IMG/VR virus record: IMGVR_UViG_2526164633_000039
DNA length: 22,209 nucleotides
Strand: one strand, 5' to 3'
From: a virus
Lineage: Duplodnaviria; Heunggongvirae; Uroviricota; Caudoviricetes
The notes under the pieces were generated by a model. That model saw nothing but the letters and a program-made list of their open reading frames with translations, was not told the origin of the DNA and did no database searches. Both the position numbers and the translations under genes were made by a program. This document shows positions 17,489 to 17,976 of this stretch, piece by piece; position 1 is the first letter of the stretch, and the number at the start of each line of letters is the position of its first letter.

Positions 17489-17503
17489 CACTTATTTTCC
17501 CTG

Positions 17504-17527
17504 GCTCGCTTTTGCGGGCTTTTTTTT
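17504..17527 (+). terminator. Rho-independent terminator after the tRNA cluster
   Basis: GCTCGC-TTTT-GCGGGC (one G-U pair) followed by an 8-T run. Confidence 0.6.
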
Positions 17528-17753
17528 AAATGTCTCACAATTCAGACGGTTGACAGTTGTCTGTTTTGCGGGGAGTTTGTTAAAAGAAACTGGCATGGTG
17601 AATCCCCCTGTGCGGAGGGGCAATCAGCGAGTAGGTATATGGGATAATCGCGGATTCAGGTGCTGGTACTGAATTCACCGGGAGGCACCCGGCACCATGC
17701 AATGGCACATAGCGCCACTCTCCAGCCCCTCTCCGGAGGGGCTTTCTTATGGA

Positions 17754-17783
17754 CAAAAAAAGCCCGCGCTGGGAGACGCGGGC
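17754..17783 (-). terminator. Minus-strand intrinsic terminator (GCCCGCG-N8-CGCGGGC plus 7-8 U)
   Basis: Read on the minus strand: GCCCGCGTCTCCCAGCGCGGGCTTTTTTT. No plus-strand T-run follows the same hairpin. Confidence 0.5.
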
Positions 17784-17976
17784 GGCAAGGAATAAACAAC
17801 AAAACGTGAAGTAATATTTCAGCTGGCGAATAATATCCGACAGTAATCACTCTGCGCAATAGCGCGGCCTTTTTCGTATTGCGGGCTGTTGTCTCTCTTC
17901 TGCCATTGTCCTGTAACTTCCGGACTTCAGCCCGCTCCTCATTTTACTCACAATATTATCCCGGCCGGGAGGATTC

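Follow-up and report, generated by a model that had tools for sequence, protein, structure and literature searches.

A probable toxin-less cargo slot with two convergent small RNA genes in a Stx-type prophage

Convergent small RNA (sRNA) genes lying between moron cargo and a conserved downstream open reading frame (ORF) have already been described (Tree et al. 2014, PMC4104026). In prophage Sp4 of E. coli O157:H7 strain Sakai, the plus strand carries the Hfq-CRAC peak EcOnc05, with an RNA of ~222 nt on northern blots, and the minus strand carries the Hfq-CRAC peaks EcOnc08 and EcOnc21, with an RNA of ~271 nt and a homologue named EcOnc42 (Tree et al. 2014, PMC4104026). Hfq-binding sRNAs bracket stx on both sides (PMC7873438), and STnc100 downstream of stx2B has been covered in two reports (PMC12370729, PMC12711010). 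Overexpression of the Sp5 allele of STnc100, EcOnc27 (sRNA103), is reported to raise fimZ and espA transcripts (PMC12711010, PMC7873438). PasD1/PasD2, reported to be a structural relative of STnc100, is encoded next to esterase or holin genes (Zhu, Shabalina, Storz preprint, bioRxiv 10.64898/2026.05.13.724894).

A minus-strand sRNA of 182 nt (1444797-1444978) is encoded by the EPEC prophage PP6, as found by RNA-seq and RIL-seq (Pearl Mizrahi et al. 2021, PMC8550237), and is described as a homologue of EcOnc08/EcOnc21/EcOnc42 (PMC8550237). Among the RNAs paired with it in RIL-seq are the cfa 5'UTR (767 chimeras) and the dppA 5'UTR (197 chimeras), as well as tir (a LEE gene), emrA and pcm (PMC8550237). 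The targets of this sRNA share the motif GGCAAGG, which is complementary to CCUUGCC (PMC8550237).

The window described here (the whole stretch of viral DNA that was analysed, 22,209 nt) contains a locus of this kind. Judged by sequence identity, it is a near-identical copy of the described locus and is already known in that form. The gap between its last tRNA gene and its esterase gene is very probably a toxin-less cargo slot of a Stx-type prophage, holding two convergent sRNA genes.

The tRNA cluster, the gap and the cargo joint

The best database matches of the late region of the window are to Stx2a, Stx1a and related phages. This region has the order Q antiterminator, ileZ-argN-argO tRNAs, nanS-p-type esterase and class II holin. 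The Q-type late antiterminator gene (15002-15568, plus strand) has the Pfam domains DUF1133 (E-value: 3.7e-105) and Phage_antitermQ (E-value: 5.9e-08). A sequence-only reading of this DNA had placed a Q-like gene, three tRNAs and a nanS-p-like gene in succession; the sequence of genes is correct, but the Q-like gene does not adjoin the tRNAs, as a small ORF and an N6/N4 DNA methyltransferase gene (16140-17198, plus strand; Pfam N6_N4_Mtase, E-value: 1.3e-43) separate them. In several Stx2a phages, a methylase gene likewise precedes the tRNAs and stx2.

Three tRNA genes follow on the plus strand. The first (17239-17314) is ileZ-type and has a CAU anticodon; it is called tRNA-Met by ARAGORN and scores 72.5 bits with the Rfam tRNA model, and its orthologue is annotated as tRNA-Ile both in Sakai Sp4 (ileZ1) and by PGAP. 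It is predicted to be a tRNA-Ile whose CAU anticodon would read AUA after lysidine modification. The second and third are tRNA-Arg(UCG) of the argN type (17322-17398) and tRNA-Arg(UCU) of the argO type (17412-17488), both identified using ARAGORN and Rfam and by their Sp4 orthologues. The cluster ends in an intrinsic terminator (17503-17527, plus strand; terminator scan) made up of a stem-loop at 17503-17520 and a T8 run at 17520-17527. In a Stx2a phage (L001), the same hairpin and T-run stand directly 5' of stx2A.

The esterase gene (17977-19839, plus strand) encodes a 620-aa protein with the Pfam domains DUF1737, SASA and DUF6645, which is the NanS-p architecture of a sialate O-acetylesterase. 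Its homologues in Stx phages are annotated as yjhS or as 9-O-acetyl-N-acetylneuraminic acid deacetylase, and a P21-type holin gene lies 3' of it. As the last tRNA ends at 17488 and the esterase gene starts at 17977, the gap spans 17489-17976, or 488 bp, close to the 490 bp first estimated. ARAGORN and Pfam bear out the succession of tRNA triplet and nanS-p-type esterase with no toxin genes in between, and stx genes are absent from the 488-bp gap by ORF listing, domain search and alignments.

Both flanks of the gap are homologous to stx flanks when aligned to Stx2 and Stx1 phages, so that the architecture is indeed Stx-phage-style, as had been suspected. From the match of both flanks, it follows that this is a Stx-phage-style cargo site without toxin. 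In Stx2a phages, the tRNA triplet and terminator align just upstream of stx2A, and the stretch from ~17533 to the esterase start aligns downstream of stx2B. The window aligns with the Stx2 phage as far as ~17527, including the tRNA terminator and its T-run, and again from ~17533 (TCTCACAATTCAG), ~45 nt past the stx2B stop codon of the toxin phage; the toxin cassette is therefore exactly absent, with no remnant. The cargo joint (17526-17533) thus consists of ~5 nt (AAATG) between homology blocks. The stx2AB cassette of L001 (~1.34 kb) and stx1AB of the Stx1 phage Sp15 occupy the same site as this joint. From ~17690, the window is near-identical to the Sakai Sp15 sequence downstream of stx1B. 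On its left side, the sRNA module begins at the same point in Stx1, Stx2 and toxin-less contexts (alignments), and the last tRNA is separated from the STnc100 match described below by 75 nt in the window versus ~1.4 kb with stx2AB in L001 and Sp5.

Alignment to the late regions of Stx1 and Stx2 prophages, which had been proposed as a means of telling an empty site from a deletion scar or different cargo, thus identifies a toxin-less cargo slot homologous to the stx flanks. The outcome named beforehand as refuting, a non-Stx arrangement without such homology, is not what the alignments show. The contents of this slot vary: stx2AB in L001 and Sp5, stx1AB in Sp15, and tRNAs only in the window, Sp4 and PP6. 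The Stx2a phage LC645409 has three tRNAs, stx2A, stx2B, STnc100 (185.7 bits) and the esterase gene; Sakai Sp5 has the tRNAs, stx2AB, STnc100 (207.7 bits) convergent with AsxR, and the esterase gene; and Sp15 has Q, stx1AB, STnc100 (176.7 bits), a copy of EcOnc42 identical to the window at 218/222 positions, and the esterase gene. In the non-Stx prophage PPyecE_EH1910, the cargo is made up of genes for plasmid stabilisation, a transcriptional regulator and a TerB-like protein, and STnc100 and AgvB lie convergently after them. Of 5426 complete E. coli genomes, 1035 (19%) contain an unbroken match to a 161-nt query across the joint, and a 901-nt sequence reaching from the tRNAs into the esterase gene is unbroken in 942 genomes. 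The joint therefore marks a common toxin-less allele of the slot; this arrangement is common and stable, and is no unusual scar.

Elsewhere in the window, there are signs of decay as well as further RNA genes. Compared with the otherwise colinear FDAARGOS_1059 prophage, an IS66-family insertion of 2.7 kb (11613-14315; target overlap of 9 bp) interrupts the DUF968 gene. After 20545 the window again diverges from FDAARGOS_1059, and 20546-22209 includes a second IS66-type transposase ORF (21013-22209, minus strand); the lysis/late region is therefore truncated and the prophage defective. The early region contains a sok antitoxin RNA (9734-9908, plus strand; Rfam, 116 bits), which adjoins hokD, and a DicF sRNA (4422-4473, minus strand; Rfam, 76.7 bits). 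Together with the sRNA pair of the gap, these bring the regulatory RNA genes of this one defective prophage to at least four. An ORF at 8500-9531 (plus strand) matches a SIR2 family protein gene of the FDAARGOS_1059 prophage and may be an anti-phage defence gene of the early region.

Two convergent sRNA genes

The region 15000-20500 contains 14 terminator-like sites, compared to 5.2 +/- 2.6 in shuffles, and four of the 14 lie within the gap. All three structured elements noted there by the sequence-only reading were recovered by the terminator scan: the tRNA terminator, a hairpin at 17726-17741 (inside 17724-17743) and a strong minus-strand terminator. Going beyond that reading, these elements are the tRNA terminator and the 3' ends of two Hfq-associated sRNA genes that converge, each with its own terminator, and the "GC hairpin" it described is the 3' hairpin of an STnc100 match. 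The fourth element is a conserved small G+C-rich hairpin followed by T5 (17852-17867, plus strand; terminator scan), located within both the minus-strand sRNA and the esterase 5' leader. It is conserved in all five aligned alleles, including the AgvB and AsxR loci that lack a long minus-strand RNA.

The plus-strand gene (17564-17754) belongs to the STnc100 family (EcOnc05 type), based on its match to Rfam RF02076 and on a terminator hairpin at 17724-17743 with a U-tract. In a scan of the window at curated thresholds, it matches model positions 1-206 of 206 with 139.2 bits (gathering score: 47; E-value: 4.5e-31). The stretch 17533-17754 is identical to Sakai Sp4 at 219/222 positions. The northern probe for EcOnc05 corresponds to minus-strand positions 17622-17656 (0 mismatches) and therefore detects the plus-strand RNA, and the EcOnc05 Hfq-CRAC peak projects to 17625-17733 (plus strand). 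The published size of ~222 nt would put the 5' end at ~17530, which is at the cargo joint and upstream of any convincing conserved promoter. A TTGACA at 17550-17555 was considered as the STnc100 -35 box and rejected: it is not conserved in Sp15 or PPyecE and does not fit the ~222-nt size.

The projection of the coordinates of Tree et al. assumes no version shift at Sp4, and a shift of 135 nt exists at Sp5. The Sakai coordinates in their Table S2 are 135 nt below those of NC_002695.2 at Sp5 (L005 3630-3682) and apparently unshifted at Sp4. Because both of their northern probes match the window exactly, this caveat is minor.

The STnc100 sequence of the window folds better than shuffles (z = -2.3). 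RNAalifold with five alleles predicts 41 pairs, six of which have changes on both sides, in what is a small sample of related sequences. The consensus fold of this five-allele alignment is closed by a long-range stem (GCAUGGUG...CACCAUGC) and has a 5' hairpin that does not vary, an arm that does, and a hairpin in which A-U pairs are replaced by G-C pairs through compensatory changes; its 3' part consists of an invariant CCGGG hairpin, a variable single-stranded segment and the terminator. This variable segment before the terminator is likely to be the seed of the RNA. STnc100 alleles also recombine: in the copies in L001 (4034-4235) and Sp15 (L007 3338-3547), a 5' half resembling that of Sp5 is joined to a 3' half resembling that of the window. 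The exchange falls within the invariant block CACCGGGAGGCACCCGGCACCATGCA, and the minus-strand partner stays linked to the 3' seed and terminator among the alleles.

The minus-strand gene (17755-17948) is of the EcOnc08/21/42 type and Hfq-associated, as judged by identity to mapped copies, the northern probe and projection of the RIL-seq data. The stretch 17755-17976 is identical at 221/222 positions to Sp4, 220/222 to EPEC PP6 and 218/222 to the Stx1 phage Sp15. The EcOnc08/21/42 northern probe equals the plus strand at 17829-17863 (0 mismatches) and therefore detects the minus-strand RNA. The EcOnc08 and EcOnc21 Hfq-CRAC peaks project to 17757-17829 and 17835-17920 (minus strand), and the 182-nt EPEC RNA projects from ~17936 (5') to 17755 (3'). 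The published sizes disagree (~271 nt in EHEC versus 182 nt in EPEC), and the 5' end is estimated at 17936-17948. A promoter-like site predicted at 17955-17983 (minus strand; -35 ATGCCA at 17983-17978, 17-nt spacer, -10 GATAAT at 17960-17955) fits the EPEC-based estimate of the 5' end (promoter scan). This site overlaps the esterase start codon and Shine-Dalgarno sequence in a head-to-head arrangement and could interfere with them.

The RNA would end in a terminator at 17783-17762, with 8 pairs (7 of them G-C) followed by U7 at 17761-17755. Directly 5' of this terminator is the seed CCUUGCC (plus strand GGCAAGG, 17784-17790), which is intact in the window. The whole minus-strand RNA folds no better than shuffles (z = -0.9), and RNAduplex pairing of its pre-terminator segment with cfa, dppA and tir windows was no better than for shuffled sRNAs, the fragment used having cut part of the seed. 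A ~68-nt minus-strand sRNA transcribed from TTGCGC-18-TATTAT near 17830-17860 was also considered; this shorter reading was dropped because the probe lies at 17829-17863 and the EPEC RNA spans 182 nt.

Proposed model and alternatives

The proposed model for this locus is as follows. The gap would close off, on the right-hand side, the cargo (moron) slot of a lambdoid Stx-type prophage, downstream of a Q-dependent late promoter, and the cargo here would be the rare-codon tRNA cluster only. In toxin phages, stx1AB or stx2AB stands immediately upstream of the sRNA module. The two sRNA genes would converge, with their 3' ends ~3-6 nt apart. The plus-strand RNA (~190-220 nt) would consist of a multi-hairpin scaffold, a variable single-stranded stretch and the terminator at 17724-17743, and the minus-strand RNA (~180 nt or more) would run from near the esterase start codon to the terminator at 17783-17762. 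Both RNAs bind Hfq in near-identical copies, and base pairing in trans is their most likely mode of action. The CCUUGCC sequence 5' of the minus-strand terminator would pair with GGCAAGG in the mRNAs of cfa, dppA and tir, among others. The identities, the family assignment and the location of stx relative to the module are shown by the sequences, and Hfq-CRAC, northern and RIL-seq results are published for near-identical copies; that both RNAs are expressed in this strain, where precisely they start, what the plus-strand RNA targets and any cis effect are inferred. It is also a possibility that STnc100 is released by processing of the upstream cargo transcript (the tRNA operon here, stx mRNA in toxin phages); if so, STnc100 dosage would be a read-out of cargo expression.

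Loss of Stx from prophages is a known phenomenon, and homology of both flanks to stx flanks is what would be seen if a Stx phage had recently lost stxAB, leaving the gap as a deletion scar. Such an origin is nevertheless quite improbable. The joint is seamless and free of stx remnants, and the same joint is found in the 1035 of 5426 complete genomes mentioned above, including Sakai Sp4 and EPEC PP6. The flanks are also mosaic, which makes a recent loss from any one toxin phage less likely: on the left they are Stx2-type (Sp15 has no tRNAs) and on the right 98% Sp15-type, with identity of only ~84% (405/483) to the sequence after stx2B in L001 and ~69% (325/468) to that in Sp5. The other cargo carried by PPyecE_EH1910 in the same slot likewise counts against a scar. 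The joint may reflect either an insertion in the toxin phages or an ancient, precise loss. A coding role for the gap is extremely improbable. In some phage records it is given as many as three hypothetical proteins, and PGAP places a partial pseudogene on the minus strand; however, the only ORFs are two TTG-initiated minus-strand frames of 58 and 67 aa. Alleles differ within these frames by indels of 1, 4, 10 and 19 nt. Because such frame-breaking indels are incompatible with coding, these small ORFs were rejected, in agreement with the earlier view that the gap holds no credible ORF, and the pattern of substitutions instead preserves RNA pairs.

The hairpins could alternatively serve as transcription terminators or insulators only, without any sRNA function; they would then terminate the tRNA transcript, halt late transcription that is unmodified and keep antisense transcription from reading in. 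Three of the four are good intrinsic terminators, and they lie between independently regulated units. This explanation is very improbable as an exclusive one, given that a ~190-nt multi-hairpin scaffold is conserved with compensatory changes and belongs to a curated Rfam family, and that near-identical copies give discrete RNAs that bind Hfq and have many partners in trans; the hairpins do act as terminators, but as parts of the sRNA genes, so that the explanation is incomplete and does not exclude the sRNA reading. A further question is whether the minus-strand RNA acts chiefly as a cis-antisense regulator of the esterase gene, by interference or leader pairing, with its trans contacts being incidental. 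Action in cis is possible because this RNA is fully complementary to the esterase leader (17755 to ~17948) and the promoter predicted for it coincides in part with the esterase start codon and Shine-Dalgarno sequence; in addition, all alleles share a conserved block at 17852-17976. The AgvB and AsxR loci, however, keep this leader block without a long antisense RNA, and the numerous trans partners seen by RIL-seq have a motif in common, so a chiefly cis role is rather unlikely. A dual mode is similarly doubtful: the RNA would act in trans via CCUUGCC to adjust host envelope, nutrient and LEE genes (cfa, dppA, tir), and in cis to keep the esterase silenced in the lysogen until it is overridden by Q-driven late transcription. 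The preferred explanation is still that of a toxin-less cargo slot with two convergent sRNA genes, the minus-strand RNA acting mainly in trans.

The value of this analysis lies mainly in annotation. The PGAP annotation of a near-identical E. coli locus and most of the phage records examined list nothing in the gap or list spurious hypothetical proteins, whereas it holds two Hfq-associated RNAs that most pathogenic E. coli and many others possess. The comparison also places the right-hand border of the slot into which stx is inserted with a precision of a few bases, and it shows that the sRNA module does not depend on the toxin. Sequence variation immediately 3' of stx2B has been linked with clinical outcome (PMC12711010). 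The independence of the module bears on such reports because toxin-less prophages in the same cell make the same RNAs.

Comparison with known systems

The minus-strand RNA of the window differs from the anti-sRNAs AgvB, AsxR and EcOnc03 (RF02702, RF02703), which have the same position and strand and are also convergent with STnc100 (in L002 and Sp5). Those RNAs are 51-60 nt in length and share a conserved 3' core (TTGCCCGAACCCA...), while the window RNA is longer and has another terminator. The core motif is present in Sp5 and L002 and absent in the window, Sp4 and L001; the ~42-nt conserved 3' region of the family, with its GCCCGAACCCAyTCGGGC terminator, is likewise absent from the window. 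An AgvB/AsxR-type identity was rejected on the basis of the missing core and of an Rfam search that gave no match to these families in 17150-20300 at E<=1. The plus-strand RNA was also compared with PasD and is not the same RNA, as PasD1/2 is the EcOnc13 (Sp3) allele and has another seed (UGUGAG).

The dyad of Sp5, EcOnc27 (sRNA103, an STnc100 member) and AsxR, shares its position, convergent layout and STnc100 scaffold with the window. It differs in having stx2AB upstream, in the central arm and pre-terminator segment of STnc100, and in its minus-strand partner, which is the 54-nt anti-sRNA AsxR with the 3' core that the window lacks. Sp15 is closer: the 3' half of its STnc100 is identical to that of the window, and its minus-strand RNA and esterase leader are identical at 218/222 positions. 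However, Sp15 contains stx1AB, has no tRNAs and carries another allele of the STnc100 5' half, with a 19-nt insertion.

In PP6 of EPEC E2348/69, the sRNA designated 'E2348C_1409.E2348C_1408.IGR' is identical to the minus-strand RNA region of the window at 220/222 positions. PP6 differs in having only two tRNAs and in the interruption of the STnc100 5' hairpin by ISEc13. This element (L006 3656-5210, at window ~17615) follows ...CCCCCTGTGCGG and amounts to a natural knockout of the PP6 plus-strand sRNA. The minus-strand sRNA of PP6 is intact beside the broken STnc100 and was detected by RIL-seq.

The closest described system is prophage Sp4 of E. coli O157:H7 Sakai. It shares the gene order of the window (ileZ1-argN1-argO1, EcOnc05 on the plus strand, EcOnc08/EcOnc21 on the minus strand and ECs_1088) and, like the window, has no stx. 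The window prophage differs from Sp4 by IS66 insertions elsewhere. The gap is 489 bp in Sp4 versus 488 bp in the window, and the two are identical at 484/488 positions, with four substitutions and one 1-nt indel.
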